Shown here piece after piece: positions 5,713-49,200 of a stretch of DNA of 64,000 nt (position 1 is its first letter; each line of letters begins with the position of its first letter). The DNA comes from Camelus ferus (lineage: Eukaryota), in contig NC_045696.1 in the NCBI RefSeq assembly GCF_009834535.1, forward strand, positions 71,922,001 to 71,986,000, written 5' to 3'. The notes below the pieces were generated by a model, which saw nothing but the letters and a program-made list of their open reading frames with translations, made no database searches and was not told where the DNA came from. Both the position numbers and the translations under genes were made by a program.

Positions 5713-5789
5713 TATTAAAGTTAAAAAGCTAGTTAATAAAGTATTGTACTGACATACAATGGAACTCTATGCAACTGTTAAAAATAATA

Positions 5790-12879: not shown

Positions 12880-13132
12880 AGATTAAGTGCCTGCTTCCAC
12901 ACAAGGGCCACTTGTGGTTTCCCTCCCCTCTGAGCGCACCACTTGGGAGGGCCTTTCAGTTACTTCTTCTAACGTAAGTGACTGGTTTCTCCGTCACAAG
13001 TGAATGAGGGGCAGAGGAAGTGTCTGCTCAGTTGCCAGGAGCCTGCCCAGGAACCAGCCTCACACCATTTGGGGACGCAGCTGAGCGTAGCAGCCCCTTG
13101 GCAAGGCAGCGGTGCTCCCCGGCTCCCCAGTC
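12880..13132 (+). promoter_or_regulatory. LAMP3: LAMP3 proximal promoter / 5'UTR
   Basis: Immediately upstream of the ATG. ETS/PU.1-type AGAGGAAGTG (13013-13022), CAAGTG/CACTTG cores (12909, 12940, 12997), IRF-like CTTTCAGTTACTT (~12953). Confidence 0.55.
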
Positions 13133-13181
13133 ATGTCCTGGCAGCTCTCTGCAATGGTGGTGCTCTTCGTGTCCCTGGCTG
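13133..13181 (+). CDS. LAMP3: LAMP3 coding exon 1 (signal peptide [16 protein letters not shown])
   Basis: ATG at 13133, hydrophobic signal-like peptide, donor G|gtgagt; phase 1 matches the exon 2 acceptor. Confidence 0.92.
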
Positions 13182-19100: not shown

Positions 19101-22100
19101 CTGGAAAATAATTACTATTTTAGCATGTGGGTCTTTGAAAGCCTCACTAAGGATCACCATTATGAAGCTTTGGTGAATCAGGGTCACTGCAGAGACAACC
19201 TACCGGTCTCCCCTCTGCTTGTGTCTCTTTTCTCCCCATTCTTCCCAGTGACACACACCACCTCCACCCAACTCCAATCCAAGGGCAGGCTTTGGCTCAG
19301 ACATGGGTTTAAGCCTCAGCTCCAAAACTGACAGGTTGTGTGATTATGGTCAAGTTAATAGAATTTTCTAAACCTGAGTTTCATCATCTGAAAGGCAGAT
19401 AAAGATAGTACCCATCAGAGGGTTTTTGAGAAGAGTTGGTGAAAGATGGCCCTTGGTCTGAGGCCTACGATGTAGTAAGTGTTCAGTAACTTGGGATTTT
19501 TATTGTTATTATTATGGGAAAAGTAACCACTTAGAAATATATTGAATGAAAGAAAGAGATAGTAAAGGATTTTAGGGATGATTTTGATTTGCTATGAATT
19601 TCAGGACTCTATAAACACCAGCATAGAGTGACATTCTTTCACTTTTCCCTGTGTTTTCCCAAGTCACTGCCTAGCACTGGGGAGCTGTTGCTCCAATGAG
19701 TGAAAATACAATGGGTAAACGCAGTGAAACCATGGCATTGTAGGGACAGAGCCATGTCTCAGAGTGCCTGATCATGAACTCTCAAGGAACATCATCAGAA
19801 CTTGTCCACTTTCTGGCTTGCTATGTGCCTGGAAAGAGGCAAGAACAGAACTATTCTGGTTGAAAAAGAACCAGAGGCCTTCCTCCCTGAAGGGACGGCC
19901 CAGAAGAGAACCTGTGACAATAACTCACGCTCTTCATATGCTTACTGATCCAGGAAGGCTTTCGCTTAAACCAGCTTGCTAGAGCCTTGCAATAATCCCA
20001 AGAGGTCTATAGTGCTATAGCCCTCATTTACCCAGTCAGTTATTTAGGCAATCGTTCCACGTCCCCTGAACGCTTTCTATGCACAGACTCTGGTGGTGAA
20101 AAAACACACACAGTCCCACCTTCAAATTGCTTTTAATCTAGTTGGAGAGATGCACAATCAATTAAGCAACCAATAAATAAACATAACCGGGGCCACTGTT
20201 CTGCTCATACACACTGTCTGGCCACGCATGGTGTTAAATATTTGAATATCATCCCCTTAAACACTTACGAGTTGTGATTAGTGCAGTGAAAGCAATGAGT
20301 ATAATGATGTGATGGGGATCTGTGGGGGTGGGGAGCTCTTTTATATGGGGAAGACTCTTTGAGGAGCTGATATTTAAGCGAGACCATGAAGGACAGCACA
20401 GCAGATGTAGCAGAACAAGCACTTATGGACTAATTTACCTTCTCAGTTGAAAAAAGCTGGGCCACTCAAAAGGTTAAGTCAGGGAATAACACGAACTGGT
20501 TTATATTTAGAAAACTGATGGCAAAATAAAAAATGGAAAGGAACTGAATCTCTTGTCATTGGAGGTAATTGAGCATAGTTTGGATGTATATGTGGCAAAT
20601 ATCCAAAGGTACAATTCACACATGAGATGACGGTTTGTACTAGATAATCTTTAAGGCCCCATTCGAACCTGGAATTATATGATTCTCTGAAAACTGTACA
20701 ACTCGGTGTAAATCTGTATCACTGGTATTCCTGCTGCCCCTGCTCTGTCAGGTCATCACAGCAGCGCCCTATACGGGAATGCTCTCCACCTGGGAACTAT
20801 CTGGATTCACACTTGAAGATGGAAAATGAAGAGGCATTGGCACTTAGATAACTAGCTGAGCATGATTGCTTTGGGGTGCTAGGACCACAGCCCATACAGA
20901 CAAAGGGGCAGAATATCTACAGTGTGATCACAACACTGTAAAAACATGGGTGCAACCAAATCGTTAAAATTGTGGCTCGTGGTAGAATTTTGAGTGATCT
21001 TCACATAACTGTTGGATCCTTGTAAATGTCCCCCAGATCTAAAAAATGCGTATTAATTTTTAATGAGGAAACATAAGTGTGGAGTAGGGGCGGGACTCAC
21101 TAATGTGAGCTATTAGTTGTTGTGTTAATATTTTTGTTTCCTAATTTGCAGTGATCCTGCATTATGGTGGTCACACGAGAGCCAAGCTGTTTCCAGAAAT
21201 CTCAGGCTCTTCTCCATCCACAACAGCAGCAACAGTACAGGCCCCAGCAAAACCTTCTCTCCTGCGGCCCACTAACCATGTGCCTCACAAAACTTTGGCA
21301 ACAAGATCAACGGATGGCCATGTCACCTCTCAAATAGCTTTCACAACCTCCAACTCTGAGACCCTGACCACCCACACAACCATAAAAATTCCAGCAACAA
21401 CTTCCCTGGTAACTACAAACAGCACCTCATCTACCAGCCCAATAACCCACACCCTGGTCACAACCCTGGCCGTACCCAACAAGTCACACACAACTTCAGT
21501 CACTGAGGCTACAGTCGGTCCCAGCATGGGTCCCAGTTCATCACCACCTACCATCACCCCACCAGCCCACACAACTGGAAACAGGCCCTCGACTGTCAGC
21601 CACACCACTGGGAAAACCACCCAACCCAGGAGCCAGACCATCCTTCCAGCAACGCTGTCTGCCTTACCACACAGCAGCACAATTAGTCAGAAGCCTACTC
21701 TACCCACCAGCACCCCAGGTCCAACCACAACCGCACATAATACCACCCAAACAGCCTCACCTGCTCCCACAGCTCCAGGGCCCACCCTTGCACCTCAGCC
21801 GTCATCAGCCAAGACTGGAATTTATCTCGTTCTAAATGGAAGCAGGCTCTGTATCAAAGCAGAGATGGGGATAGAGCTGACAGTTCAAGATTCAGGGACG
21901 GTAAGTCAAGGCCATAGGACGCTATCTTCAAAAAGTTTGAGTGGGAGTGCCTGGCTAGGAATGAACACTCCCCTGTATCCTGTATCTTGAAATAAAACTG
22001 CGAGCTCCTCTTTCTCCAAGGTGCTCCATTAAAAGGTGAATCTGTTTTAGAACACATATAAAAGTAGCAACCGATAGTGATTGTGTGGATCAAAGAAAGC

Positions 22101-25100
22101 ACGCATCAAAATTTTAAATACGCACACCCCTCAGTTTCAGCCAGTATGGGCAGAGTGTGTGTCCAGCGTTGACCCCAGCCTGACTCTGCCCCTCTGGATG
22201 ACTTCCAAGCCTCAGCAACTTTCCTGTGAAACGAGAGGTTTGGATTAGATTGTCTCCATGGTTCCAGCCAGCTGTGACATTAATATGACAATAATATGAA
22301 AAATCCAACTTGACAAGAAGATTGGAGGGAATAGGGTGGGGGCTAAGGGTATTCAATTTGCTAAAATAATCACTATAAAGATAACATGTCCCTTTTTGGC
22401 ACAGTTTTTATGACTTCGAAGAAACCTTCCACATGCAGGTTTTTAATTTGAAACAGAAGGGTAGCAAACTGGGTAGTAAAACCTATCCTGTAGTACCCTT
22501 CAACATGTTTGATTTAACAAAAATTAAATTCCACGTGGTTTATCAAGAGTATACTTGCCATGAATTATCTATCAAAGAACTCCTTCAAAAAATCTTTTAA
22601 ACAAAAGAGTTTGGAAATAAGAGGTGTCTTTGGGGACTTTGAAATTCTCCAGTGAACACTCACTAGCCTTGAATTTCAGGCCCGCTTACTGGCCTGTGCT
22701 TCTAGTCTCTCCCAGCTGGAGTTTTCTTCCACGGTTCACTGAAACAACCTCCTTTATTTGGTTTAGGTTCTTTCACCCCTAAGATACTTCAGCATCGACC
22801 CCAATGCAACTCAAGCCTCTGGGAACTGTGGCTCCCGAAAATCCAACCTTCTCTTGAACTTCCGGGGCGGATTTGTGAATTTCACATTTACCAAGGTGAG
22901 GCTGAGCTCCTTCACTCTACCTGGCTCTAACGCCGCTTCCCCTAACCCTCACCCTGGGGCTCGGTGGTGCAACCCTCCACTTCACTTTAAGTGCAGGGGA
23001 AATAGACCTCAGAGACTTTTGAGATCTTCTCTGATAAGAACGAGGGTCGTGGAGACGGAGAAGGCAAGTGTCAACATCTTCTGTTTGCTTTCCTCCCTCT
23101 TCAGCCCCCTCAGTGCAACCTAAGAAGGGCTTTGATGCCTCTTGGGGGAGGCTTGGCCTTGGGGAACCTGGCCGCAGTGCCCCTTGCAAGCCACCCAGAG
23201 GAGGAAGTTGTACAGATGAACAGACCCATAGAAATTCCCAGTGGGCATGAAGAAATGTGATTACACTAAGACCAAAATTAAATGTCACAATGGGTTCTTT
23301 CCAACCACAGCAGGCAAAATTCAGGGACAAACCAGGCACAGGGTTTTCCAGACCAGATCTTGGGAGGGGGAGGCAACGGAGTAGAGTGGAAGAGCATGGT
23401 TGTGGGGCCAGAGTCTTTGCTGTAAATTTGACTCTGTCACTTGCTCTCCTTGTGGCACCAGGCAGACAGTTTTACCTGTTTGAGTATTTTTTTTAATCAT
23501 TTGAAAAATGGGGTAAAGTAATTAAAGATCCTTCCTGTACAGAGTTTTGTCCAGTACATGGAAAGTGGATGTTCAATAGCCAGTAGCTGTTCACAATGAC
23601 TGAAATGGGCAAATGTCCTGGGAACACAGTGATGGTCATCTCCCCCTGTCAAAGGAGAGACTTGCCCCTGCATGCCCCAGAGTGTCCTTCAAATAGGTCA
23701 AGAGGACCCTTGCAGCTGAAACTTGATGGGGGCCTCCTTCTTGCCTGTCTGACATGACCCCTGAAGTTAGAGGGTCTTGGTTAGCAGATCTTGGAGAGCA
23801 ATGAGCATAGACTTTGGGATTAGAGAAATCAAGACTGACTCTCAGCCATAATACTTAGGAGCTGCATGATCTTGGACTAGTTGGGGTTTGTTTCCTTCTC
23901 TATAAAATGGAAATAATGGCAGCTATTTAGTAAGACTCTTAGGAGAATTAGAAATGCTATACGTAAACCATCTAGCACAGTGTGTGGTACATGCAATGGT
24001 CAATAAAGAGGAGTTATTAACTTGGCCTCACAGGCTTTATCCTCCTCATGCATGCTTTTCTCCTTAAGGTAGTGATGCATTTGAAAAGTTGATATTTTCC
24101 TTTCAGTACCAAATGGAAAAACACATAATCCTTCACCAGAAGAATATTCAGGGCATAATAAGTGCTCTGTTCCTGGACAACTGAAGTTAATCTAGAAAGA
24201 TGTCAGGAATCTTTAAAAAGTCACTTCAGCAAAATGGCAGCGGATAGGCATAAGCATTTATGCTCTAATTTAGGGCTTAATCCTACCAGACCATTGCATC
24301 TGTGAAAAACTGCCTAAGGGAAGGCTTCCGAAAACTCCAGTGTTCATCTGTGGCACACAGTGGCCACGCTGCCAGGCCATGGACAGAGCTGTGAGCAGGA
24401 GTTGCTTTGGCACCTTTCCCTGTCTCTTTTTGCTCTTTTCATCTGTTTCTTGGAACGATGCCTTCAGGCTCAACTCTATTTGATCAAGCTCCACTCAAGT
24501 GTTGAATCCCTGCCTTTCTGGAAATCCTCTATGCCTCCAGAGGCTGGACAGGAAATGAGTGCCCAGTAGCGCTAGAAGGACCAGTAGGGCCCCCTCTTCC
24601 CATCCTCCTTCAGGAAGGAATAAGGTGAGCCTCTCAGTTCATGGCTCCAGGTGTTGCAACAGCAGCTTTGCCGAGTCTCGCCAACCACATTCACCATATT
24701 CATTCCACTCCCAACACCACTTCCCAAGGCAGCTGACCTTGGCTTTGTCACAGGAGAAAGCAGAGGGGCTCATAGAAAGTAAAAATTCCCACCACCCTTA
24801 ACCCTTCTGGGGGATTTCCACATTTTAAAAGAGAAATTGTTTAAGCCAAAACAGTGGCCACAAATCCAAAGATTACAGGGACTAAGCATAGAACTTAATG
24901 AGTCAAGTGGTGAAAAATTAAAAATGTCTTTTTCCTGGTAATGGGCAGTCCTTATTTTTTATTTTCCCACTTTTGATGAAGACTTCATTCTTCCATTAAA
25001 TCTGTATAAGAAAAATGTGAGCATAAGCATGTGATGGCAAGCCTCAGAGGGAGAGGTGAGGAGTGCCCTCCTCCTCTGCAGGGCAGTTAAGTATTTTACA

Positions 25101-31100: not shown

Positions 31101-34100
31101 AAAGGGACAATCCCTAGGTAAAAAGTGGAACATTGCTTTATATTTCTGAACACAACAACCTGGGGTCCTCTTTGGAGGACCAGTGATCTCAGGGTTAACC
31201 ATTTTTTTTTCACTCCCTCACGGTGGCCCCATCTAACCATTTTGGAGGCACAAACCCATTAATCTGTTTAAGTAGCTGATATCCTACCCAGGAAAATGCG
31301 CACACAATTCTGCATACACTGTTTTTCCCAGAGGGTTTATGGACCCCATGAAGTTCCCCCATGGTAGCCTTAAGGGTGAGTGGTCTCAGTTTGACTTCTA
31401 ACCTTAATTACTAGGAAAAGCTTAATGTACACCCACCAACCCATCCACCTTCCAGATGTATTTGCATTTTAACAGTGGAAAACTTGGCCCAGCTGAAGGG
31501 ACTCAAATTGTTTGTACAAGTGGAATTTGAATTTCAGGTTCTAGCAACAAGTATGCAGTAGAGAAATGTTCAGCCGCAGACAAGCTATTACTTGTTATTT
31601 ATTTATTGTGTGATATGTTTACATTTTTGGAAATTTCCAAACACAATTATGGCTCCATACCAACACACCACCCAACCCCCATGTCAAGGATTTAATAGCT
31701 GCCTAAACAGTCTGTAAGCTAGGATCGTAAACATAAAAATAGAGATTATCCAAAGGTTAACATACTGCTGTTTTACAGGATGAAAACTCCTATTATATCA
31801 GTGAAGTGGGAGCCTATTTGACTGTCTCAAATCCAGGTAAGTTCCACAGTTTCAACTTTTCATCTCATTGAATTTGCTAATCTTTGATGCTGCATTTGAG
31901 AAACAGACTGAGAGAGTAGACAACAATGTAACTTTGGGGGAACTTACTACACCTCTGTGTGCTTCAGTCTGCTTGTCTGCTCATGAAGCAGATTGAACTA
32001 TATTATGTCGACGATCATCATTGGCAGAAAAAGAGCCGAGTAGCTCACAGATTTGCTGTTAATGATCCAGTTTATTCAGTACTCTCAGAATCATGCATTC
32101 ATTCTACGAGAATGTAGTTAGTGCCTGCTGGGTTCCGAGCCCTATAATAGGTACTGAGGATCCATAATTATCCAAACATAAAGTCCCTGCCCTCCTGGAG
32201 CTTAGTTTCTAGAAGGGGGACAGGACCATAAACAGACACATTCAATTATTATAATACACAGTTAGACAGTGATAAGTTCTATGAAGAAACACAAGCAGAA
32301 TGGGGTGGAGAGGACTAGAAAGGGTATTAGGGAAGCTTTCAGACAGGAAGGCCTCTCTGAAGATGGGAGGTTTGAGCAAAGAGATATCCCCATTTGGGGA
32401 CATCTGGGCCTGGGGAAGCTCTTTCCAGGTGGCAGGAACAACAGGTGCACAGGCTCCAAGGAGTGAGCTTGCTAGTGTGCTCAAGGACCGGGAGGGCCCA
32501 GTGTGCTGGCGAGAGAGAGGAGTGAGGGGCCGGCAGGCCCGAGCTCGGAGGGCAGTGGGCAAGGCAAGGTGAAGGCACTGGATTTTATATTAAAGTGTGA
32601 AAGGATGCCATTGGAGGGCTTGGGGTGGGGAAATAATATATAAGATTTACATCTATAAGGGTTCACTTTGGTTGCCATACAGAGAATTGTGCAAAGTGGG
32701 GCAAGTTGAGAGAACTCCTACGATGTTCACTTTTAGAGAAATAATGCTCCCTGCCAAGTTGGGGGAGTTTCTCAGAGGCCTTGAATGTTTCTCCAGAAAG
32801 CCTTGACTTAGATAACAAACCGCTAGTGAGCAGCTCTTCTGTGCCACGCACTGAACTAAGAGTTTTCATGTCTGTTTTCTCCTTTTCAAAATTCTCTTGA
32901 CTGGCTTACACTTATTATCTTATTAACTAAGGAATTTATACTAAAGAAACTTGCTAAGAAATGAAAATGTAAGGAAAGGTCTGTTTTAAACACGAGCTGT
33001 ATTACACTGGCATTGCTCAAGAGGATGTTGTCAGTGATTATCGGTAAAATGTAAGTAAGATGTCACAGTTGACAGTTTTATAGACATTATCTCACTTAGA
33101 CGAGCCTCCTCATATAGGCTTGGGATTAAATATTGTGAATGGTAACATAAATTAGCTAATGTTATCACTAGCTAAATTCTAGCTAGTGACGGGTAGTAAT
33201 ATCTCAAGAGGCAGGAGAGGGGAAAGTCAGACCAGAAACTAGAGGCTGAGAGAGGGATAGAACAATCCTAAGTCTCCAAGATCGAGGCTCGGCAGTCCAA
33301 ATACCACTTACCAGCTGCATGATGCTAGGCAAACGTTTTCAGCTCTCCGACTCCATTTCCTCATCTGCAAAGTGGAGACAGTAGTACCTCCCTCTAAAAA
33401 GTGTGAGAATTAAGCAGGAAAGTGCACAGAAGTGCTTGCACAGTGCAGGGCACACAGTGAGCAGACCCTCAGTGTGGGATGTTATGTCAGACGCAGGCAA
33501 AGACACCCACAGAGGCAGGAGAGGAGGGACGTCTAGACTCTCTCACTAACAGCCCACGGGTGAATTCACTGAGGTCCACAGTCTGTTCCTCAGCCCTGGG
33601 AGGTGTCGGCACATCCTTAAGTAGTGGCTGTCTCTTCAAGTAAACCAGGATCATGAAACTAATGCATAAAATCAGAATGTAAATTTGTTCATTTGTCATG
33701 CTCCTGTTTCTTACAGTAACTGCAAGAGGACCAGACAATTGGGTCCTCTGGCCAGTGAATTTTCTCCCATTCAGGAAGCCCAAGTGTACTCGGAAGGGAG
33801 CTTGGTGGAGGTGGAATTATAGCAAATGGAGTTAATTATATAAGTAAAAGGTATAACCCATGTGCCTTGAAGCATACACCTCCTTGGAAAGGGTGCACCT
33901 GTCACAAAACAGGGCCAGTCCTTGAGCAGGACCGTCTCTCCCAGCAGCGCTCAGATGGATGGGGATGGCCCTCTCCCTTCTCTTTGTTTCCACGGATAAC
34001 CCCTCCCAGCGACAGGCTTAGTCCTTCATTTTGCTGTATTAATGCATTCAGTCTGGGGATATGCAAATACTTGGTAACTTTGCATGTCTCTGCTCTGATT

Positions 34101-37100
34101 CATTATGAGTTCATGTGATTTTGTCTCAGAGAACAATCTTACATTTTTTATTACTGAAGTTTTTGTGGGCACTTCTCTGTCGTTCCCCAAGCATTGACAA
34201 GAGTCCCCACCAACTCTGCCCCCAGTGATTTAAAATAATTGAGGAAAAGATTGCCAAAAGTTTCATTTCAATGTTATCACATCCCAGTTTATGTGAGGCT
34301 GCCCCTGTATATTCCAAACAGAGCACCAGAAAGAAGTCCCCCAGAGGGCACTAGGGTGACTTTTCATGAGGAGAAGGGGACAGAACTCCAGAGAGCCACA
34401 TCTAAGGAAGGCCATTTAACGGCATGTGGCCACTCCACAACAGCTGGGGCTCAATGGATATTTGCCAGGATTCTTATATGTCACTGTTTCACCTTTGTTG
34501 TTTTCAGAGAAGGTTTACCAAGGAATGAAAAATGCTGTGGTGATGTTTGAGACTGTGGTCGGGCATTCCTTCAAGTGTGTGAGTGAACAGAGCATCCAGC
34601 TCTCACCCCACCTTCAACTGAAAACAACGAATGTCCAACTTCAAGCCTTTGATTTCGAAGACGACCACTTTGGAAATGGTAAGTTATGGGTTCATCGTGT
34701 CACAGACATAAACTCCTGAGACCCAGGGGCAGTTTCAAGTTGTTTTCATTTGAAGCTTTCAAAGGGATAAGAATCACATGAATGTCCTAGAACAGTATGA
34801 TTCCACAAAGCTCTTAGGGTCAAGTTTCTCAAGGCCTCCCTCTTACTGTTCCTCTGTGCCTCAATACCAACCTCGAAATGAGACACCTTAACTCACTCGT
34901 GTTCACTGCCTTCGCATAGCAGAATACATTCCCCTTGTCTGACCAAAAGACTCATTCTGACCCTTTTAAACATGCACACACTCAATCCATCAAAAAGTCA
35001 GAAAACACCATTGGCAACCTCCCCTACTGTTCAAGCTGTTGAGTACTGGTAAACTCAGGTGTCTTTGGGGAACTTTAAAAATCCTGCGTATTAGTGATAC
35101 CTAAAATTCAGGATTTCAGGGTAGATTCTTTCCCACTTGCAGAGGGAAAAGGAAAAGCTGTAATAATTTTAGACAGAAATACACTCTGTTGAATCCCCTC
35201 TTCTCGAATCCGGGCTGTTCCACCTGACTGGTGCTTCCTCATAGTTAGTTTCAGTTTCCATGAAACTTCTGCTTTGGGTTTTTACCACTAGAGAGGGAAG
35301 CAGGTCCTAGGAGGAAAGTCAGGGGCAGCCCAGGGTGACTTTCCAAAAAAGCCCTTTCCTCCCCACCAGAAAAACAGTATTGCAAGGATTTCCACATATG
35401 GGCAGGAATTGAACTTCAGTTTCTAAAAGCATCTCTCTTACAATAATTCAATGACATCATGAGTACCTCTCAACTATCAAAAATAGAGTTAGCTACAAGT
35501 TTAGCTATAATTTAAATTTCTATACTATGAATCTGATTTCTCTTTGAATCCCATCGTAAAGTTGAAGTTGTGTCTGGCAGGAAACTTCAGATATACTCGG
35601 TGGAGCCCATTTAGCAAAGGAAGGATTAAAATGTTACTTGCCTTGGATCGCCCTGGTTTCTGCTGGTTTTGTCTGAGTTCTACAATCTCTATCTTTGTTT
35701 TGGAGATTTACCACAGTAGTAAGATTAAGTGCTAAAATTTGCTGGTGAGTGTTGCCCCTACTTTGTCATCTTGTCTCAAAATATCCAATATGGGGAACTC
35801 TTAAAAATTTCTTATGAAGGCTCAAACAAACTCTGTATTTAGTCATGTGGTCTTAAAAATAAGGCACACACTTGCTCTTCCTCCTCTTCAGAACCTGTGT
35901 AGAAGGAAGTGAGCAGGTCTAGGAAACCTCTTAGTGGCAGAGGTGAGAAATAAAACCTTTCAGCCGGACACCTGGCCTGTTAGCAGTGCTCACAAGGAGA
36001 TGTAAGAAAGCTGTCTTCGTTTTTCCCTCGCCCTCCCTCACCCTCCCACATTCATAGTCACAAGGCCCTATCAGTTCTACCGCCAGATGACTTCTCTTGT
36101 TCGTTCCACCGTTGCAGCTTCAGCTCAACTCCATAGTCCCAGTCTTTGTGCTTCAAATTTCACTAAAGATGCTCTGATGTGAAGTTGTTTGTCATTCTAT
36201 AGGTAATATTTTCTACCCGAGAGTATGAGAAGAGGGAAAAAGGAGCAAGTTAAAAAATAAAAGTTACCGTGCAGCATGGTGTTCTAAAAGGCCTAATGCA
36301 AAGGAAGGCCTGATGAACATAGCATTGCGGGGAGGGGTCAGGGAAGTCCTGACCAATGGCTGGGGCTCCAAGAACTGGAGAGGAGTCCAGCAAATGTAAA
36401 TGCCCAGCCTTATCAAAGAGACTGTTGTCCCACACAGTCGGCTTCTGACCCCCACATTCTCAACCTCTTCTCTGTAAAATCTCAGCCTGCAAAGTTTCCC
36501 CATTACCAGGAGCCCAGGCTGTCCAGCAGCCGCTTCAAGAGGCACAGAGTTGAAATAGAAGACTTTGGCCACGTGACTTGGTGCAGGTCCCTGTTTCCGA
36601 AGTTGGGAATCAAGGCTCCCCGGCTTCCTCTCGCTTGAGAGTCAATTCTGATTCAGGCCCTCTAGACTGAACCAGTGTTTCTCAAAGTTGAGTCTGCCTC
36701 CCAGCTACTTCAGAATCAGCTGGGACCCACCTTCAACCCGCTGAATCATAATTGCCTGGGTGTGGGGCCTGGGGATCTGCAGTTTAATACACCCATTAAG
36801 TGAGCACAAGCACTGCAAGTAGCACTGTCCCCGTCCTTTCTCATCTCCGCCAACTGTGGGTCCCTGGCAGCAAGGGGGTAGGCCCAGCCGCTCCATCTCC
36901 CACCTGGTTTCCTCCCGCATGAGGCCGAGGTGGGCTGGGGCAGCATCACTTCCCAGCATTGTGGCCAGCCCATAACACCTGTTACTCTGACTTCAATTAC
37001 AGCGGATGAATGCTTCAGTGACAGAAACAGCAGAGAAATCCCTGTGGCTGTGGGCCTGAGTATCGCAGGACTGCTTGGCGTTCTGCTAACAGCATGCCTG

Positions 37101-40100
37101 GTGACCAGAACGAGGCCCAGTAGAGGATATGAACACATGTGAAGCCCCACCTTTTTCAAAAGGTGCAAGGTTATGGCCTTGGAAATTCTGGCTGCATGAT
37201 TAGCCCTAAGTGAAGGGATGGACTTTTCCAGTCGCCTGCTCCATTCTCCCAATCTGATTAGGAAACTAGCTCTCCACCAAAGGGCCATCGAAGGCTAACT
37301 CTAATGTAGCCCCTACCCCACTTCTTCCCATTAGGGCGACGAGGTTGTGCCGTATGGGCTTGAATGCCGTGGCCCACACCTGATAACACAGGCCAGGCAG
37401 AGACAATTAGGGACAAGAAGCAAGGATGTGAGCAAGGTCCTTGTGAGGAGAAAGCAAACACCCAAAGGGAGGATTGTGGGAAAGACGTCTTCAAACTGCA
37501 CGGATTTTTCTTACACATTTTTAAGAGTCTCAATATCCAGTTTCTTTTTTTTAAAAAGTATTACTTTAAGAAAAACCAATCCATTTCAAAATAAATTGTA
37601 AAATGATTTTGAACACCTGGTTTTTGCCCAATTCCTGATTTACTTAAATTACCAATTGTCTTGATAGACTATCGTTTTTTCAAAAAGACATATTCTACAC
37701 TATTATAGTATATTATTAGTAGAAAACTTCCCACCATTTCACTTTTTCTTTTTTTTAAAGGGATGTGCTGGGGATTGAACCCAGGACCTCATGCATACCA
37801 AGCACACACTCTACCACTGAGCTATATCCCTCCCCCACCAACATTTTCTTTTTTTAATGTGAAGGACATACCAAAGATCTTGGCAAACAAAAGAGACTTA
37901 ATAAATGTTAGTTCTCCATTTCCTTCAGTTTCATTTGTTATCTGCCTTCTTGACACCTTTTTCCTGTTTTGTCTCTGTTTTTCTTTGATTTTAGTTTACC
38001 CCTGTAGACTTGTTAATTTGGGCCATTGGAAAGCAGAGGTAGGCAAAGCATCAAAACAATAAGAAACGGCAAGCGGAAGAGGTAGATCTACCCAGGTTGT
38101 TGTCCACTTGACTTTTAAAACAACATTTACCAAAAAAACTGTAAACCAGAAAATTCCTGATTGGGAGTGATTGTTGTTGGGAGGAGAATTTCTATTAAAC
38201 TGTTGCTTGGAATGTTATTCCCAGTTTTCTAGTCCATGGACTGCTTACATATGAGAACCAGGGTTTTTATTTCAGAGGAAGGGGAGAGTAATGGACTTCT
38301 GGGTGTTTTTAACTGCTTTTACCAACAGAAAGTTTTCTTGTCTTTCTACACTTTCCAGAGGTGCCATTCATTATTTTTAACAGGAAGTTTATGAAAGGCT
38401 GGCGACCACTCTATAACCACTGCTTACCTAGGATGTGTACTGGTTCCTTTGAGGCCTTTCAGCTCTCTCCACTTTCTCAGGAGTGAGAGGGGAGGGCATG
38501 CGGCTGCTTCAAGAGTGCTTCAAGAGTCCTTGAAGACGGCTGGAGTGTGAGGACATTCCTGTTTCCTCCTTGCAGCAGGAGGTGTTGGTGCAAATCTGGG
38601 ATGTGAGGACCCAGTGTTCCCCAAAGTGACTTGGGTTGAGCAGCAAGGACTTGGCTTTGGAGAGATGCCATCTGTCTCCATCTCCTCCCTCCAGCAGGCA
38701 CCAACCAGTGCCCTGCTCGAGACTCCCATTTCCAGTTCAGCCTCAAGTGTACTTGGAAGGTTCTATACCGCAGAGCACGGGCAGCTTATTCACAGGTGCC
38801 GCACACCATCCTGTAGAATGACTAGAGGAAGGTTGATCTTCTAGTGCGGACATTTCTCCCACAGCAGATGCAAAAAGCAGTGGATTGAAATCAGGAAGAG
38901 TGGGATAAGGCAGGTCACTTGAGGTTAGTTTTCCATTCTACCATCTTCAGTGAGTTCTTTGGAGTGATGGCTGGCTTAGACTCCTGTGATCTACCCCTCC
39001 TGCCCCCCACGCCAAATGTCTTTAAAGTGACTTTGAATTAACCAAAAAGAGCTCAAGTTTCATTTGAATGACTAGTAAACAACTGCGTTATCCTCTCGCA
39101 CTTCTGCTTACTGTCTGCAGGGAGTCCTGAGAGGGTCCCTGCGGGGAAAGTGCTGGGATTGAGACTTCAGTAAACTGGGTGCTGGAAGAGGCCCCTCCGC
39201 CCCCAGGGTTGTCTCTTCCCACGGAAGCTCCAGTGGCTGAGGGGCTGTTGTCGCTTTCTGAGGTTGGGCCGGAGGCTGCCACTCCGGACTCCGGGAAGAC
39301 CCCTCACAAAGGGGCCTCTGATCCTCTCTGGCAGCGCTGTCCCCTTGCCATTGGCTCTCCTGCTGTTTTCTGATCCTGCTAGTTTCAACTCAGTTACTCT
39401 CTTCTGCTGATGGTGGAACTCCTGAATTCACCCCTTTCTCTGCAACCAACCTAGAGATAATGGAAACCTTCACTAATGCCCACCTGGAGATAACCTATCC
39501 ATTGTTCATTTTGATGTACCCTTGAACAAGGCTGGGCGTTGGGGCACCCACCCTCCAGCAGTTGAAAATCCGTGTCTACCAGAGTTGGCCCCCTTCCCAG
39601 TGGTTCCCTCTATACCTGCTTTCCTCAACCACCTTTGGAGAGAGGAGTACTGCAGTATTTAATACCAAAAAATTCCAACTATCAGTAGACCCAGCAGTTC
39701 AAACTGGTGTCCTTCAAGGGTCAACTGTATTTCCTTCTCGTGAATACTGTTTTACAAACTGGAGGCACACAGAGGACACCATTTGGCATCTTTTTCACCT
39801 GTGCACTGTAAGTATCTCTCCGGGCTCCTAAATGTGCAAAGTGCCATTACCATGACCGCTATCCCGAATGTGCTCTCAACATTATACAGTTATTTACTTA
39901 ACTCTTCTGTTTTTATTGGGAATGTTTGTTGTTTCTAGGTTTTCACAGTCATAATGTGAATAAAGAATTATGTGATGAATTCTATGCAAAACAAACATTG
40001 ATTGACAAATGCATATAGATATGTGCCTGAATTTTGGTTTTGCCTCATAAACCGTTTGAAATGGTTATAACTTATACTTCACTACTAATTCTTAATTTTT

Positions 40101-42145
40101 AAGAAAAAATGGGAACAAAATAAATACATGTAGATTGTTTTTAAAAAAAATTAAGCACTACAGAAATATATGAAATGAAAGATTGGAGTTAAAATAGTGA
40201 CTAGAATTGTCCACACAGAATTTTTCTTCCTCATTATCTAACAGACTGAGGGGGAACTTTAAAAAAAAAATCACTCTTAGCGGTCAAAAAGACATAACCT
40301 AACACAATGAACGTTCTGAACTGGTGAACAACAGAGATACAAGACTCAGAGGAAGAGTGGAGAGGGTCAGCCAAGGTGGTACCGAACCCTGCCTCTCCAA
40401 CACACCTGCCCCAAGAAGCTGCATGATGATAGAAAAACAGCCTGTGAGTGCTTACCACTGTTACTAAAACTGGAGAGAAAATGGGCAATCACTTTATCTC
40501 CTCTAACCAGGAGTAGTGAAAATGGCCTCTGCAAAGGCTAGGACATGAACAGGAGCACTAACCCGGGGCCAGAGGACACCTCCAGGCTTAGCTAGTTCCC
40601 AAGGTACAGAAAAGAAGATAGAATCCAAATGGTGAGTTCAATAGGGAACATGAACTGATGCCAGACACAATGGAATGAAAGGCCCTGGTTTACCAGTGGA
40701 TATTATAGGAAATGCAACATCTGGATGAGATGCTCAAGCTTGAGCAAGATGAAAGCAAGCCATATGACCACTATGCAAAATCACTGCAGCGAAATAACAG
40801 TATAAGTCTAAATTGAATTGTGGGTAAAGAGTTTTCATTCTGCTGATGAAAAAAGTTCTGGTGATGGACAGTGCTGATGGTTGCACAAAAATGTGAGTGT
40901 ACTTAATGTCACTGACATGTACACTTAAAAACTGTTAAAATGGTAAATTTCATGTTATATATATTTTACCACAATTTTTAAAAATTAAAGGAGGGAGGTT
41001 AGAAAGGAATATGGTCTATAAAATACAAGGAAACCATAACTCAAGAGACAGAGAGAAATCCCTGTCAATTGGTTTTGCTGAGAATCACTTAATAAGAATG
41101 TAAATTCTATAAAACCAGAGCTTATAGATGAAAAATTACAGTGAAAGAGTGAGATGAATGCGAGATTTCACTCCTAACACAACAAATCAAGTATCCAAAC
41201 AACACACTTATGTAGTAAATAGAAATAGTAAGGGTCAGGATAGATAGAGCTGAAAACTGATTTGTCTTCACAGAGAAAAAGACTGAGATAATCAGTTAAT
41301 GCAGATAAAAATTAAGATTATAACATAGGGAAGATGCTAGGTGTGAAAGATATTCAGATCATCTAAAATGAAGACTACTGGTGCCTCTGAAGTACAGAGT
41401 TCAAAAATAAGAAGACCATATATTTGGATTTAAGAGGTTTTCCTTAAAATAAATAATTGAAGTTGCAGATTGAAACTGGAGCACAGTGTATCCCAGAAAA
41501 AAAGAAAAAAACTAATGCAGAAAGCTTAACATTAAGACATATCCAAAGTCGGAGGGAGGGTATAGCTCAAGTGGTAGACCCATGCTTAGCATGCATGGGG
41601 TCCTGGGTTCAATCCCCAGTACCTCCTCCAAGAATAAATAAATAAACCTAATTACCTCACCCCACCAAAAAAAAAAGTCATTGAACCTTAAAGATAAGGA
41701 ATTCTTTAAACATATAAACTCCCCCTTCCCCTCAAAAAAGCAAATCACCTATAAAGGAGGAAAGTTAAAGTTGGTCTCAGATTTCTTTACAATAATATTT
41801 AAAGCCAGCAAAAAACAGACCAATGTCTACAAAATCCTAAGGGAAAGAATGGCTCCAAAATATTATTTGAGTAAAAAGTTAATAGGCAAATATCCTCAAA
41901 CATGAAATAATTCAAGGGATACAACACCACTGAGCTCTTCTTAAAGATACTGCTTGACAATGAAATTTGATGAGGTCAGAGAGAAGCCACATTAAACAAG
42001 AATATCAGCACACATCCCTCAGGAATAGAGAAAACACAGGTTGTTGTTGTTTTTTTTTTAAGGAATTTAATCTATTTAATGAGTTAAATATAAAAAGCAT
42101 TAAATAATTATGGATCTGAGATTTTATCATACCTTCTCACATATG

Positions 42146-42182
<37 letters not shown>

Positions 42183-45100
42183 GCTTATTCATCACAGCAT
42201 TATTTGTAATATTAAAAGATTAAAAACAAACCAAAGAATACTATAGTTGTTAAAAAGAATGGAAACATACATGTTTATGTATGTCTAAAGAAAATTATCC
42301 AAAAATATTGTTAAATAAAAAATACATAATGCATAATTGTGAGAAAAGTGGGAAATAAAGTTTATTTTCATTTTTGCTTGTATCTGAAACATTGGAAATA
42401 TCATATAAGAAACTAAGTAGTTATCGAATAATGGCAGGGGGAACTAAGTAGTTATCTAATAATGGCAGGGGGAACTAAGATGTCACAAGTGTGGAAGTGA
42501 AACTTATCAATGTGTATAGCATTTTGTATTATTTTAACTTTAAATTGTGAATGTGTTCTATGTTTGAAACAAATTTTTACAAACCATAGGAATTATAATT
42601 ACCAACTAGACTCGAAATATTGTAAACATGAACAATGTTTTTAAATATATATATGTAACTATTCAAAATTTGAGTTGGGAAGAACAGAGGTAGAAGGAAA
42701 TCAGCTACTGTTAATCTTTCAAAACAGAATCAATAGATGTCTAAATTGGAAACAGAGTTTAGAAAACACATGTCTTTAATTTATTTTATAACCTCTTTAA
42801 TGCATTTCATAATTTTATTTATTATTATCTCTTTTTGTACCATATAGAGATCTTTTATGCAACAATATTTCCCATGTCAAAGATACATTTATTTGAAGTG
42901 CAGTAATTCCTCCAGTTTTGTTTTGGTTTTTTTCTTCTATGAAGTTCAAGTAAAATTAAATGAACAACTTTGGTCAAAATAGCATTTGTATGATTCCACT
43001 TTGATAAAACTACTTCTATTTATTTTTCTACCCATCTATTCTTATAGTTGTGAAGAAAGATGCCCGAAATAATGTTTGTCCATGTTTCAGCAGTGATAAT
43101 TTCTGGGTAGGAGGTTTTCAGGAGATTGGTTTTTACTTTTTTATTTGTGATTTCTAAATCATTTTAGTTATTTATTATGAGCATATATCTTTTTTTAAAT
43201 ATAATGATTTTTCTTTAAGCATACACTGTGAGCATGCACACACGTACAGAGGGAACAAATGCTTCAAAGGTTTATAGTGATTAATTCAAGTGAAAGAAAC
43301 ATGGTGATTGGATAATATTTTCCCTGTTTACTTTTCTGCATTTTTAAGACAGAGTATAAAACTGTTTGGAAAGTGAAATTTGCCTCTATTCCCATCCCAG
43401 CTTCTTGTGTATTTTTTCAGCTCTAGATATGTATGAGATGCTTCACAGATCTTAGGGAACTTCCCTGACAGCACCTGGAAATCTATCACATTCTTCTTAA
43501 GGGCTACATCATAGTCTATTGTACGAATGTATGATAAAAAAAAAAATTTAAGAGGAGCTATTTTATTTATTTATTTATTTTTAATGGAGGTACTGGGGAT
43601 TGAACCCAGGACCTCATGCATGCTAGGCATGTGGGCTACCACTGAGCTATATGTACCTCCCATGATTTAAAATTTTTGATGGATATTTAGAGTGTCCATT
43701 TTTCTCTCACAAAATGGAGATTATTGTAACATTGCTTTGTGTACTTTATGAATATATCTTTCGGTTTTTTTATTTTTAATATATTTTTATTGAAGTATAG
43801 TCAGTTTACAATGTTGTGTCAATTCCTGCTGTACAGCGTAATGATGACTGTATCTTTAGTTTAAATTCCTAGTGGTGGAATTGCTGGGTCGATAGGTATG
43901 TGCTTTACATTTTGTTTGGACAATTTTATATTTTTTTCCGAATTATTTTATCTTCTAGCTTATGTTCTTTTTTATCTAAGAAATATATATGTAAATATTT
44001 ATATATTCAATATTATATATAATTAACAAAATTATATATTAAGTTTAACAAATATATAAATAACAAAACTGTCATGTACTCCAAAACTTTTATCATAAAC
44101 AGCAACATTTCCCTGTCCCTCTTCTTATAGACAAAGCACTTTAACTAGTTTTAATAGTTTCTTGTGGTAGCTATCTCCATAAGTCTATAAAAAATATCTA
44201 GAAGCTTATCCTACTATTTCTTAATTTATCAGCTTTAAACCTCTTTCTATAGCAGATAAGGATTTAACACTCTTGCAGGATTCTTTTCATGGTTATATCA
44301 CTGTTTTTTGTTAAATCAATAAGGTATGCATTGGTATAGTTATGTAAATATTGTCCACTGCCAAAATCAAATAGTGTACTACAAGCATAGTTCCTGCCTT
44401 GAACAGATTTTGTTTTTTCCCTGGGGTGTCTAATTACCATTCCCTCTTCCCTGGCCCCTTTCTGGTTCTTTTTTCTTGAGCTCAGGTGAGAATTGGGTTA
44501 ATGGTGATCCTTGATCCAGGACACAATTTCAATATTGGTTCTTAGAAGACCCTGTGGATATATCTTCTTACCTATCCTTGAATAAGATATAGATGTAGTT
44601 CTCCACTTATTTGTATTCAGTCAAGCTCCCTTTTATCCCCATCGCCTTCCATCTTTCTCCAGCCCAGACTGATTACATCTTAAGTAAATTGAGTAAGTAT
44701 TCTCTAAGGGAATAAAGAAAAAAAGAGTTTTGACAAATTCACAAACTTTGACTTTTATGCTCTCATAAAACTAGGTCTATTTTTTAATACTTTTTTGCTC
44801 ACTAAGAGCAATAAAAGAGAACTTTAATTATGGCAAAAAAAAGTTTTATAAAGAAACATCATGTTTTTTCAAGAGGTCATTTTTATGGTGAGATGAACAG
44901 TCTGTTTTACATGTAAGCACACCCCACTTTGCAGAGAGCAACACCAGAAGAAAACAGGGCTAACAATTATTAAATATCTATTAATTATTGAGAAGAGAAG
45001 TTTATCTTATTTCATCCTCCAACAATTTTATATGTTACTTGCTTACTTTATAAATTGCAAGGTTAAATAACCCACCCAGGTCCACACAGTTTGTGGTGAA

Positions 45101-45350
45101 ATTAAAAGTCAAGCCCAGGTCTGACTCCACAGCTCATGGTCTCCACACGCTAGCCTGCTTTCTAATCTCTCCTCACTAACCCTTACTGGCTGTATTGTAT
45201 TTGTTTTTTCTCTTAGTGGACGAGTGTTCATCTGACTACACAGTTATGCTTCCCGTGATTGGGGCCATCGTGCTTGGGCTCCTCACTGTGGGTTTGATTG
45301 TCTACGGAATCCGCCTAAGGCGTGAATCATCTGGATACCAGAGATTCTAA
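13133..45350 (+). CDS. LAMP3: Lysosome-associated membrane glycoprotein 3 (DC-LAMP/CD208), 6 coding exons: 13133-13181, 21152-21900, 22767-22895, 31779-31836, 34508-34678, 45217-45350; 429 aa
   Basis: Exons join in frame through GT-AG introns (49+749+129+58+171+134=1290 nt). The product has a signal peptide, a Ser/Thr/Pro mucin-like region, a single LAMP domain with 4 Cys, a TM helix and a GYQRF tail. It lies next to MCCC1, as in other mammals. Confidence 0.97.
14150..15677 (-). mobile_element. Relatively young 5'-truncated LINE-1 (ORF2 C-terminus plus 3'UTR) in LAMP3 intron 1
   Basis: Minus-strand peptides VQPLWKTV...[13 protein letters not shown]...[21 protein letters not shown] and [30 protein letters not shown]-rich tail near 14150. 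Confidence 0.95.
16186..16688 (-). mobile_element. MLT1-type LTR
   Basis: tgtgtcagttaagg...ggtcacacattcccacccagctggaaaggaggc...tctgccaca. Confidence 0.65.
17880..18770 (-). pseudogene. Candidate decayed ENDOD1-like DNA/RNA non-specific endonuclease (NUC domain) sequence, antisense in LAMP3 intron 1
   Basis: Colinear minus-strand motifs broken by frameshifts and stops: [19 protein letters not shown] (18548-18491), VEFPQL (18458-18441), GYKR/GQV (18049-18028), [19 protein letters not shown] (~17976-17918). Confidence 0.45.
21152..21900 (+). CDS. LAMP3: LAMP3 exon 2 (mucin-like domain and start of LAMP domain)
   Basis: Acceptor tttgcag|, ORF 21151..21990 (ILHYGG...[29 protein letters not shown]), donor |gtaagt at 21901. 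Confidence 0.97.
22767..22895 (+). CDS. LAMP3: LAMP3 exon 3
   Basis: tttag| [43 protein letters not shown] |gtgagg; 129 nt, phase 0-0. Confidence 0.96.
25416..25638 (-). mobile_element. MER20-like DNA transposon
   Basis: cagtgcttctcaac...ggctgtcctgtgc...ctagatgccagtagc...ggttgagaa. Confidence 0.8.
25851..26005 (+). mobile_element. tRNA-derived SINE (camelid vic-1-like)
   Basis: ggggagggtatagctcaagtggtagagtgcatgcttagcatgcatgaggtcctgggttcaatcccc (A and B boxes) plus (AAAT)n tail. Confidence 0.9.
28020..28128 (-). mobile_element. tRNA-derived SINE (same family)
   Basis: Reverse-oriented copy flanked by the target-site duplication tcagcctggttct (28001 and 28132). Confidence 0.88.
28617..28910 (+). 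mobile_element. MER58-like DNA transposon
   Basis: ctatggcccccagaccaaatccagccc...gtctgtggctgctttt...aagcctaaaatattt. Confidence 0.7.
30311..30440 (+). mobile_element. Short L1-3'UTR-derived retroinsertion with poly(A) and 17-bp TSD
   Basis: TSD agaatgaggcatccaga at 30311-30327 and 30424-30440; ~28-nt A tail. Confidence 0.85.
31779..31836 (+). CDS. LAMP3: LAMP3 exon 4
   Basis: ttttacag| [19 protein letters not shown] |gtaagt; 58 nt. Confidence 0.95.
32090..32690 (-). mobile_element. LINE-2 fragment
   Basis: cattcattc...tagtgcctgctgggttcc...ccctgccctcctggagctta...ggaaggcctctctgaaga...ggattttatattaagtgtga. Confidence 0.75.
34508..34678 (+). CDS. LAMP3: LAMP3 exon 5
   Basis: ttttcag| [57 protein letters not shown] |gtaagt; LAMP motifs GHSFKC and VQLQAF; ends in phase 1. 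Confidence 0.97.
36673..36815. mobile_element. MER5-like DNA transposon fragment just upstream of the alternative LAMP3 exon
   Basis: cagtgtttctcaaagt...agaatcagctggga...ggggcctggggatctgcagtttaa. Confidence 0.6.
37003..37142 (+). CDS. LAMP3: LAMP3 alternative terminal exon (proximal '6A'): TM helix plus GYEHM lysosomal sorting tail; 431-aa isoform
   Basis: Acceptor ctctgacttcaattacag|, phase 1 compatible with exon 5; encodes (A)[45 protein letters not shown]. Confidence 0.82.
37590..37905 (+). terminator. Candidate poly(A) signals for the proximal LAMP3 terminal exon
   Basis: AATAAA at 37590-37595 and 37900-37905; the second is followed by a T/GT-rich tract. Confidence 0.45.
37743..37836 (-). 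mobile_element. tRNA-derived SINE (same family)
   Basis: ggggattgaacccaggacctcatgcat...ctctaccactgagctatatccctcccc. Confidence 0.88.
41551..41676 (+). mobile_element. tRNA-derived SINE (same family)
   Basis: gggagggtatagctcaagtggtaga...gggttcaatccccagtacctcc plus A-rich tail. Confidence 0.9.
42150..42179. repeat. (TA)n microsatellite
   Basis: About 15 perfect TA units. Confidence 0.95.
43560..43661 (-). mobile_element. tRNA-derived SINE (same family)
   Basis: ggaggtactggggattgaacccaggacctcatgcatgctaggcatg...accactgagctata. Confidence 0.88.
45217..45350 (+). CDS. LAMP3: LAMP3 canonical terminal exon ('6B'): TM helix plus GYQRF tail
   Basis: Acceptor ttttttctcttag|; (V)[43 protein letters not shown], matching the recalled human LAMP3 C-terminus (...SSGYQRI). 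Confidence 0.96.
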
Positions 45351-47277: not shown

Positions 47278-47722
47278 TGTATTAGTTATCTATAGCTATG
47301 GGACAAATTACCTCATGACTTAGCAGCTTAAAACAACAAATGTTTATTATTCTCACACAGTTTCTGAGGGTCAGAAATCTGGGAACAGCTTAGCTGGATA
47401 GGTTCTGGCTCAAGGTCTCTTACCAAGTGGCACTTCAGCTGTTGGCCAGAGCTGCAGTCATCTGAAGGGTCAACTGGGGCTGAAGATTCTGCTTCCAAGT
47501 TCACACCAGATGGCATATCCATAGGGATGCTTACAACACGGCAGCTGGCTTTCACCAGGGCAAATGATCCGAGGGAGACTGACCACCTAATCATAGAAGT
47601 GACAATATCATCATTCCTGCTGTGTTCCAGTGGTCACACCGACCATCCCTGGTACAAAGTAAGAATGAAGACCAGGAGAGGTGGAAATCAAAGGGGGCCA
47701 TCCTGATGCTGTCTATCCCACA
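47278..47722 (-). mobile_element. MLT1-type MaLR LTR
   Basis: tgtattagttatctat...acaaattacc...cttagcagcttaaaacaac...ggtcagaaatctggg. Confidence 0.8.
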
Positions 47723-47984
47723 TCCACTGTCAAAGTGGAATTACTGGTTTGCTTTTTAGAGGAAACTCGGGTATGTAAATTCCAGTACATACGCTAAGGA
47801 AAATAGTTTAATAGGAACCTGTAAAAGGGTAATGGGAGCAGGGCCCATTCCAGCCTGCTTCCAACTCTGCCCTAGGTGTAGCCCTTACCCGGGAGAGAGC
47901 CTCTCAACTCCTGGACCAGCAACTGCTCAGCTGACTTGCCTCTCCATGAAGTCTGGTTGTTGGCCCATTGTTCTATGACATTTA

Positions 47985-49200
47985 TTTATAGCTTTGCCTC
48001 AGGAATTTGTTAACTCTCCTGTCCTCTGTCATAATCCAAAGAGATCTAGACCACACAGACATCCCATGGGATCTCACACTGAACCGCTACATTGACAACA
48101 TCATGTTAATTAGACAGGACAAGCACGAAGCAATTATTATGTGGCAGGCCTTGGTTAGACACATGTTCCAGGAGGTAGGAGACAAACCCTAGGAAGATCC
48201 AGGGATTGACTACTTCAGTCAAGTACTCAGGGGATCAAGGGCATGCCAGAATATCCCTTCCAAAATAAAACACAGATGTTTTGCATCTTGCATCTTTTCC
48301 ACAAAGAAGGAAGCACAGAGCCAGGTAGGCCTCTTTAGGTTCTGGAGGCAACATTCTACAGCTGGGAAAATTCCTCTGGCTCATTTACCAGGTGACATAA
48401 AAATCTACCAGTTTTGAGTGGGACCGGAGCAGGAAAGGGCAGCACAACTCTAGGCCACAATGCAATCAGCCCTGCTGCTTGAGCGGTACAATCAGATGGA
48501 CCTTATGGTGTTGGAGGTCTCAGCAGTGGGAAAAGGTACGATATGGAATTCTTGGCAAACTCTAGTGGTAGAATCATAACACAGGCCCCAGGCATTCTGG
48601 AAAAATGCTAAGGCCATGCCATTTGCAGCAGAGAAATATATGCCCTTTGAGAAACAGCTTTTGGTGTATTACTGCATCCTGGAACTTTGAACTTGGGACG
48701 CTAAGTGACCATACATCCAGAACTGACCACTTTTTTTCCCCTGGCATACAGCATAGTGAGTCAGTTATCCGTATATATTCCTTTTCATATTCTCTTTTAT
48801 TATAGGCTATTACAGGGTATTGAATATAGTTCCCTGTGCTATATAGTGGGAACTTGCTGTTCATCTATTTTATATGTACATGTATATGTGCAAATCCCGA
48901 ACTCTGAATTCAACCCTCTATCCTTTGTCTCCCCACTGGCAACCACAATTTTGTTTTCCATGTCTGGGAGTCAGTTTCTGTTTGTAAATAAGTTCAATTG
49001 CCTCATTTTTTAAGATTCCATATATAAGTGATATCATACAATAATTTTCTCTTTCTGGCTTACTTCGCTTAGAATTGACCACTTCATTTACTTCACAGAA
49101 TTGACCACTTTCGAGCTAAATTCTGTCAAATCCACTAAGTAATATGGTTGGATGGGTCTAGCAGTAATCAGTTGCAAAATAGAACTGGTATGGAAATGAC
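47985..49200 (+). mobile_element. ERV-L pol (reverse transcriptase/RNase H) remnant, interrupted by an L1 3' fragment
   Basis: Decayed frames QRDLDHTDIP..LTLNRYIDNIMLI, KKEAQSQVGLFRFWRQH, FEWGPEQERA, PFEKQLL, typical of ERV-L RT and connection regions. Confidence 0.88.
48731..49074 (-). mobile_element. L1 3'UTR fragment nested in ERV-L
   Basis: Same 3'UTR motifs as the 14150-14560 L1; flanked by agaa(c/t)tgaccact repeats. Confidence 0.8.

Follow-up and report, generated by a model that had tools for sequence, protein, structure and literature searches.

Background

The closest described parallel to the gene treated here is LAMP2, whose variants have a common luminal domain and differ in their transmembrane (TM) and cytosolic regions; a review of these variants gives LAMP2A a role in chaperone-mediated autophagy, LAMP2B one in macroautophagy and LAMP2C one in the uptake of nucleic acids (PMC9221867). 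In LAMP3, also named DC-LAMP, the canonical description (human NP_055213.2, with the luminal domain solved as PDB 4AKM) has one C-terminus, which we call tail B, and a second one, tail A, is missing from it. Here we examined the LAMP3 gene of Camelus ferus in a stretch of 64,000 nucleotides (NC_045696.1, positions 71,922,001 to 71,986,000, forward strand), hereafter the window, in which the last shared exon, exon 5, is followed by two terminal exons, 6a for tail A and 6b for tail B. The most likely explanation, to which we give a probability of about 0.82, is that an ancestral last exon of LAMP3 was duplicated and that 6a and 6b are its diverged copies, used as alternative last exons.

That LAMP3 has two tails is already known, from the RefSeq models of human and of dozens of further species, and from a brief mention in one preprint. 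This preprint reports PeptideAtlas support for 278 splicing events that are missing from GENCODE, and it maps peptides to the alternative C-terminal helix of human LAMP3 XP_005247417.1 (PMC11601488, bioRxiv 10.1101/2024.11.14.623419). In those parts of the preprint that concern LAMP3, tail A is given one sentence and a figure (Figure 4 legend), and these parts contain no expression pattern, no function and no evolutionary comparison of the two tails (PMC11601488). For what it says on evolution the preprint cites PMC9741552, in which LAMP3 is named neither in the main text nor in one supplement. A full-text literature search found no paper on the expression, trafficking or function of the tail-A form, and PMC5215401 was discarded as a source on LAMP3 splicing because the 'splice variant' in it is HLA-DRB1. 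What is added here is modest, namely, an exact confirmation in the camel, the finding of no third homologous exon, the better conservation of tail A and the seemingly independent duplications in LAMP3 and LAMP2.

Two homologous last exons in camel LAMP3

The window contains a complete LAMP3 gene on the + strand. The coding exons were located with short words of the public camel LAMP3 protein, and their boundaries were set with a script that tried neighbouring positions and demanded GT/AG at every intron (Table 1). A preliminary description of this DNA, made from the letters alone, had proposed that exon 5 ends in phase 1 and can be spliced to either of two last exons, and the public models agree with it exactly. 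Exons 1-5 joined to 6a give a protein of 431 aa that is identical, residue for residue, to P0160 (LAMP3 isoform X1, Camelus ferus/bactrianus), and exons 1-5 joined to 6b give one of 429 aa that is likewise identical to P0159 (LAMP3 isoform X2, Camelus). The LAMP luminal domain, Pfam PF01299, covers residues 237-379 with 156.6-156.7 bits in the X1, X2, and X3 models, the cut-off being 27.2. By this domain the gene belongs to the LAMP family, and by the exact match to the Camelus X1 and X2 models it is LAMP3.

Exon 5 begins at AG/AGAAGG and ends one base into a codon. Exons 6a (140 bases) and 6b (134 bases) follow its donor at 34678 in tandem, both in phase 1 and with the acceptor AG at 37001-37002 and 45215-45216, respectively. 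Since each of them carries its own stop, the two LAMP3 proteins are mutually exclusive. With the residue of the junction codon in brackets, 6a reads (A)DEC...GYEHM and 6b reads (V)DEC...GYQRF, and the tails differ in length, comprising the last 45 residues in A and the last 43 in B. Both exons thus start with x-D-E-C, whose membrane-proximal cysteine is the candidate for closing the last disulfide of the luminal domain. This domain is identical in the two isoforms, and its alignment to the solved LAMP3 structure (4akm_A) extends through the DEC motif that either exon supplies. In both tails the motif is followed by some 22 hydrophobic residues and a basic stretch, and the five residues at the C-terminus are G-Y-x-x-hydrophobic, so that the elements ascribed to both exons in the preliminary description can be read directly in the sequence. 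The first two bases of 6a (37003-37004) are CG, and the junction codon gives A in the window and in the C. ferus/bactrianus models; the dromedary X1 model, P0164, has V there as its sole difference, as a CpG transition would give.

A profile made from 164 distinct LAMP-family tails was run on the 2228 stop-to-stop open reading frames (ORFs) of at least 20 aa on both strands of the window. Exon 6a was matched with an E value of 4e-24 and 6b with 1.1e-18, and the next best ORF had 0.17. Because 6a and 6b are the only ones that match, there are exactly two homologous tail exons in the window, and no third was found by this profile among the 2228 ORFs. A first version of the profile had given a homologous third tail at 38313-38483 (E 6e-4), which was an artefact of having P0162, the dromedary LAMP3 isoform X3, in the tail set and was gone once P0162 was removed. 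Within one species tails A and B are 26-37% identical (10 species). Judged by their common match to the profile, 6a and 6b are homologous to each other, which is in line with the earlier proposal of two homologous and mutually exclusive last exons.

The proximal tail had also been called LAMP1/LAMP2-like, and there is a trace of this in the Pfam results. PF21222, which describes the LAMP2-type TM segment, matches tail A with 18.8 bits (E 0.0015), which is below the cut-off of 27, and does not match tail B; bird LAMP3, which has a tail of type A, reaches 24.9 bits against the same cut-off. Tail A resembles the TM and tail region of LAMP1 in keeping the family-typical helix start IP.AVG...AGL, the basic stretch and the terminal G-Y-x-x-hydrophobic, but it differs in that its PF21222 match is sub-threshold and in that it groups with LAMP3 tails in the tree described below.

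Two candidate poly(A) signals are present after 6a, as had been noted before, but they carry no weight as evidence because AWTAAA occurs 262 times in the window and one within a few hundred bases is expected anyway. A stretch at about 37745-37835 (+) that contains GGGATTGAACCCAGGACC and that looks by eye like a tRNA-derived SINE lies between these two signals.

Tail A in other vertebrates

The 45-residue peptide of 6a matched 33 longer proteins out of 133 candidates, and a profile made from 12 A tails matched 64 proteins out of 8000 scored candidates. The named proteins among them are LAMP3 or LAMP3 isoform X1, X2 or X3, apart from two fusions with MCF2L2 that are dealt with below. The species are camelids, cetaceans, ruminants, horses, many bats, bears, otter, badger, walrus, and sea lion; macaque, marmoset, mouse lemur, marmot, naked and Damaraland mole-rats, pika, and tree shrew; and dugong, elephant, tamandua, three marsupials, echidna, and four birds. 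Human XP_005247417.1 (P0138, LAMP3 isoform X1, 418 aa), which falls in the macaque cluster, has tail A with 83% identity to the camel 6a peptide, and human NP_055213.2 (P0129) has the canonical tail B with the end GYQRI. The same cluster has a bonobo X3 model of 418 aa, which is like human X1 by its length, the feature compared. The human X1 protein and the predicted isoforms of other vertebrates use the same exon as camel 6a and differ from it in nothing essential. Thus, the suspicion that the isoform may already exist as a prediction proved right, tail A being present in annotated LAMP3 isoforms of human and many other mammals. In two vespertilionid bat models, P0015 (Myotis) and P0009 (Pipistrellus), there is an extra VT before ADEC and the acceptor is apparently six bases upstream; the in-frame read-through of the corresponding camel stretch is ...SIT-ADEC.

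Outside the mammals we used P0002, a spliced tail-A fragment of 129 residues, in a search of the whole library. It matched 357 proteins at E <=0.001, and for the best 150 of them the C-termini were sorted by type and 20 names were looked up. Among these 20 named matches, LAMP3 with a tail-A-like end was seen in five squamates, four teleosts and, in a hybrid form, the coelacanth, and LAMP3 with a tail-B-like end (...KRKSSGYQRI) in possum, two turtles, Xenopus, axolotl, and a caecilian. Tail A is the sole type seen in the LAMP3 proteins retrieved from four birds, five squamates, and four teleosts. Both tails on identical luminal sequence were found in human, macaque, camel, narwhal, horse, Myotis, possum, the tortoise Chelonoidis, Xenopus, and the caecilian; in possum, Chelonoidis, Xenopus, and the caecilian the second isoform, with the other tail, is inside the same 90% cluster. 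Because these isoform pairs share an identical luminal sequence, the two-tail arrangement is present in amphibians, turtles, marsupials, and placentals, and the second LAMP3 tail appears to have been conserved since at least early tetrapods.

Conservation of the two tails

Ten species with both isoforms were compared in 45 species pairs, which are not independent of one another. Mean identity reached 0.63 in tail A and 0.56 in tail B, against 0.58 in the 170 luminal residues that precede them. Of the two tails, A had the higher identity in 39 of the 45 pairs, and five of the six exceptions involve Myotis brandtii, whose model has its acceptor two codons upstream. The difference is clear between possum and the placentals, where identity is 0.76-0.83 for tail A, 0.48-0.59 for tail B and 0.55-0.58 for the luminal part. 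GYxx[ILMVF] stands at the extreme C-terminus in 61 of the 64 tail-A proteins, and in the set of 12 tails the small or polar helix residues G17, S19, T29, and C31 are invariant across mammals. A neutral stretch of 138 bases would not be expected to stay open and to keep its motifs over such distances, and it is for this reason that we consider tail A to be under selection. These comparisons support the view that tail A is no relic and that an old exon duplication has been kept by selection, as the preliminary description had supposed: there are isoform pairs in amphibians, tortoise, marsupial, and placentals, and tail A is at least as well conserved as the luminal domain.

It could still be asked whether 6a in the camel is an intact but unused relic, with the X1 models being driven by homology and 6b alone being expressed. 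Camel tail A does differ from the consensus of mammals in three residues (S for R, T for K, and H for R) and it ends in GYEHM where most mammals have GYERM. However, the exon has an AG acceptor and a frame that is open throughout, and it is identical or nearly so in the models of Camelus ferus/bactrianus, dromedary, and vicugna. One would not expect an unused exon of 138 bases to survive undamaged in all camelids and their relatives, and relatives show spliced transcripts. We therefore regard an unused camel relic as very unlikely, slightly more so than the regulatory alternative taken up below, and alternative use of two diverged copies of one last exon accounts better for these observations.

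Origin of the duplication

A maximum-likelihood tree of 40 tails was made from 46 columns and is indicative only; its outgroup rows P0219 and P0226 were confirmed as LAMP1 and LAMP2, respectively, against solved structures. All B tails are on one side of a branch with support of 85/82 (unstarred), the amniote B tails having 97/95*, and a shark tail, which has a long branch, is sister to them (87/84). All A tails group with the teleost tails (92/92). The A and B tails of LAMP3 are together set apart from the LAMP1-like and LAMP2-like tails with 97/99*, and because of this grouping the LAMP3 tail duplication looks independent of that in LAMP2. The tree suggests one old duplication within LAMP3, parallel to the one that gave the LAMP2 A/B/C exons, and within the same limits of 40 tails and 46 columns a common origin of the LAMP3 tails with the LAMP2 alternative exons was not seen.

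The likeness to LAMP2A, LAMP2B, and LAMP2C is that a shared luminal domain is followed by alternative exons that each code for a TM helix and a short cytosolic tail; the difference is that LAMP2 has three alternative tail exons whereas LAMP3 has two homologous ones. Thus, when the preliminary description spoke of a LAMP2A/B/C-like system it was right about the architecture and the splicing logic.

Use of exon 6a

In 4 of 13 Logan-derived tail-A ORFs (P0002, P0018, P0104, and P0108) exon 5 is joined directly to 6a. The first three begin in exon 3 and continue by way of exons 4 and 5 into 6a, and P0108 enters from intron sequence just before exon 5 and then passes from exon 5 to 6a. The spliced ORFs are on contigs of 0.9-1.8 kb, and the camel introns from exon 3 to 6a are 8.9, 2.7, and 2.3 kb long. 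Since the camel introns between the same exons (2.3-8.9 kb) are longer than the contigs, these short contigs come from spliced RNA. The cluster of P0002 has three more members with up to nine contigs each, and P0002, with tail A, has the same exon-5 end as P0084, with tail B; because of this shared end one species, or two close ones, must have both forms. Spliced exon 5-6a and exon 5-6b ORFs point to use of both exons in mature RNA in other species, and camel tissues may use them likewise.

Two routes can be envisaged from exon 5. In the first, exon 5 would be spliced to the weaker acceptor of 6a and the transcript would end at the nearby poly(A) site; in the second, 6a would be skipped and exon 5 would be spliced to the stronger acceptor of 6b, 8 kb further on. 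The ratio of the isoforms would then be set by competition between 6a splicing with proximal cleavage on the one hand and continued transcription with 6b splicing on the other. The products would be type I membrane proteins with the same luminal part and with a different helix and tail.

The same features could be taken to mean that 6a is used mainly as a regulatory early-termination exon that lowers the canonical output and that its own protein product is immaterial. Exon 6a comes first and has the weaker acceptor, with a pyrimidine fraction at positions -23 to -4 of 0.65 against 0.80 for 6b. In addition, an intron read-through, ...TPVTLTS..., stands in frame about 30 bases before the acceptor in eight of nine unspliced tail-A ORFs and in the camel; the intron flank of 6a appears to be conserved, as is common for regulated exons. 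Spliced tail-A contigs are also fewer than spliced tail-B contigs. However, a regulatory exon has no need to retain its peptide, and yet 61 of the 64 tail-A proteins, whose species range extends from human to echidna and birds, still have the cysteine, the TM helix, the basic stretch, and the terminal GYxx-hydrophobic, the tail-A peptide is more conserved than the luminal domain, and, in the LAMP3 part of the preprint, human peptides are reported on the alternative helix (PMC11601488). A mainly regulatory role is therefore very unlikely, although slightly less so than the other alternatives. Least probable is that tail A comes chiefly from read-through transcripts of the upstream MCF2L2 gene and not from LAMP3 proper, because, although two of the 64 tail-A proteins are MCF2L2 isoforms (Aotus P0109 and Fukomys P0120) that enter LAMP3 exon 2 and have a tail-A end and none of 63 tail-B matches is such a fusion, normal LAMP3 models that have the signal peptide of LAMP3 are among the other 62, the fusions are predictions and come from two lineages, and tblastn with P0109 and P0120 found their LAMP3 part only and no MCF2L2 exon in the window, including positions 1-13000.

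Points that weigh against the proposed alternative use of two tail exons

The explanation that we prefer, two diverged copies of one LAMP3 last exon used alternatively, has to be weighed against several observations that do not favour it. With regard to transcripts, 9 of the 13 Logan tail-A ORFs are unspliced, being genomic or pre-mRNA, and enter from the intron, whereas 11 of 12 Logan tail-B ORFs are flagged as spliced, P0039 entering from the intron. These ORF counts, which are not quantitative, suggest that tail A is the minor form. Use of 6a in the camel itself is a prediction of public gene models. With regard to protein, the relevant part of the preprint states that spectra for this class of isoform were not inspected by its authors and that the isoforms were not validated by GENCODE curators (PMC11601488).

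With regard to conservation, tail A is damaged in some lineages. In elephant (P0032) it ends in GCEYT while that of the dugong is intact, in tamandua (P0122) the GY motif is missing, in the sea-lion model P0119 the protein extends five residues beyond the motif while other carnivores are intact, and in the X1 model of the turtle Emydura (P0316) the sequence is out of frame after about 10 residues. Decay confined to these lineages is one possible cause, and mistakes in the gene models or assemblies are another. Tail-A proteins of mouse, rat, and hamster were not among the sets of 33 and 64 matched proteins, a weak point since the search was word-based and gives a hint only. Finally, in approximately unbiased (AU) tests a separate duplication in mammals, which is 22.9 log-likelihood units worse, was not rejected (p 0.061), nor was a separate one in amphibians (p 0.109), and any dating of the duplication from the tree is tentative.

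The LAMP3 locus and its surroundings

The dromedary X3 model points to one more terminal exon, between 6a and 6b: exons 1-5 of the window followed by this exon match P0162 exactly (Table 1). The acceptor has a strong pyrimidine tract (0.85). The 42 residues that it encodes have no cysteine, no hydrophobic TM helix, and no likeness to LAMP tails, and the resulting protein would be without the domain-closing disulfide and without a membrane anchor. This exon is probably splicing noise.

Downstream of LAMP3, two exons on the + strand encode parts of a biotin-carboxylase N-terminal domain (Pfam PF00289, E 5e-16 and 7e-07), presumably those at the beginning of MCCC1, which normally lies next to LAMP3. 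A G+C-rich region at about 50700-51500, which has the look of a promoter island, precedes these exons. ORFs at 47368-48414 that by eye looked like a retroelement had no Pfam match and were dropped.

Table 1. Positions in the window of the LAMP3 exons, candidate poly(A) signals and neighbouring exons
Feature	Position	Strand	Remarks
LAMP3 exon 1, coding part	13133..13181	+	ATG at 13133; signal peptide; equals residues 1-16 of P0160/P0159; GT after 13181
LAMP3 exon 2	21152..21900	+	Ser/Thr/Pro-rich mucin-like region and start of LAMP domain; open frame, reconstruction equals public models
LAMP3 exon 3	22767..22895	+	LAMP luminal domain; splice reconstruction
LAMP3 exon 4	31779..31836	+	Splice reconstruction
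LAMP3 exon 5, last shared exon	34508..34678	+	Phase-1 end; donor GAAATG/GTAAGT; Cys of FKCVSEQ
Terminal exon 6a (tail A, proximal)	37003..37142	+	DEC Cys, 22-residue TM helix, 12-residue cytosolic tail ending GYEHM; TGA 37140-37142
Candidate poly(A) signals for 6a	37590-37595; 37900-37905	+	AATAAA; hexamer scan
Terminal exon of dromedary LAMP3 isoform X3	38359..38486	+	Joined to exons 1-5 gives P0162 (427 aa) exactly
Terminal exon 6b (tail B, distal, canonical DC-LAMP tail)	45217..45350	+	DEC Cys, TM helix, 12-residue tail ending GYQRF; TAA 45348-45350
Biotin-carboxylase N-terminal exons	56873-57022; 60091-60240	+	Pfam PF00289

Possible roles of the two tails

Residues around the tyrosine of the GYxx motif tune adaptor binding and the distribution between lysosome and surface, and the LAMP2A helix is said to pack against itself. 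By analogy it is reasonable to suppose that LAMP3-A and LAMP3-B may differ in sorting or assembly; the preliminary description had named the lamellar body and the MHC-II compartment as possible separate destinations. A helix in tail A that packs with a partner or with itself would fit the data because of the invariant residues in this helix and because, between marsupials and placentals, tail A has changed more slowly than the luminal domain. Taking these points together, we tentatively propose, as a possibility that we hold to be less than even, that tail A, rather than the textbook tail B, is the C-terminus of LAMP3 under the stronger constraint and the one closer to the family type, that its helix packs with a specific partner or with itself, and that the two isoforms may be in different assemblies or compartments, for instance in lung type II cells and dendritic cells.

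Conclusions

LAMP3/DC-LAMP is widely used as a marker of mature dendritic cells and alveolar type II cells and is normally treated as a single protein with a single sorting tail. Antibodies, tagged constructs, knock-outs, and expression probes that are aimed at the canonical 3' end may miss part of the output of the gene. If murid rodents lack 6a, and none turned up in them in the word-based search, work in the mouse would have missed the tail-A form. By analogy with LAMP2A, LAMP2B, and LAMP2C, the two forms of LAMP3 could do different jobs.

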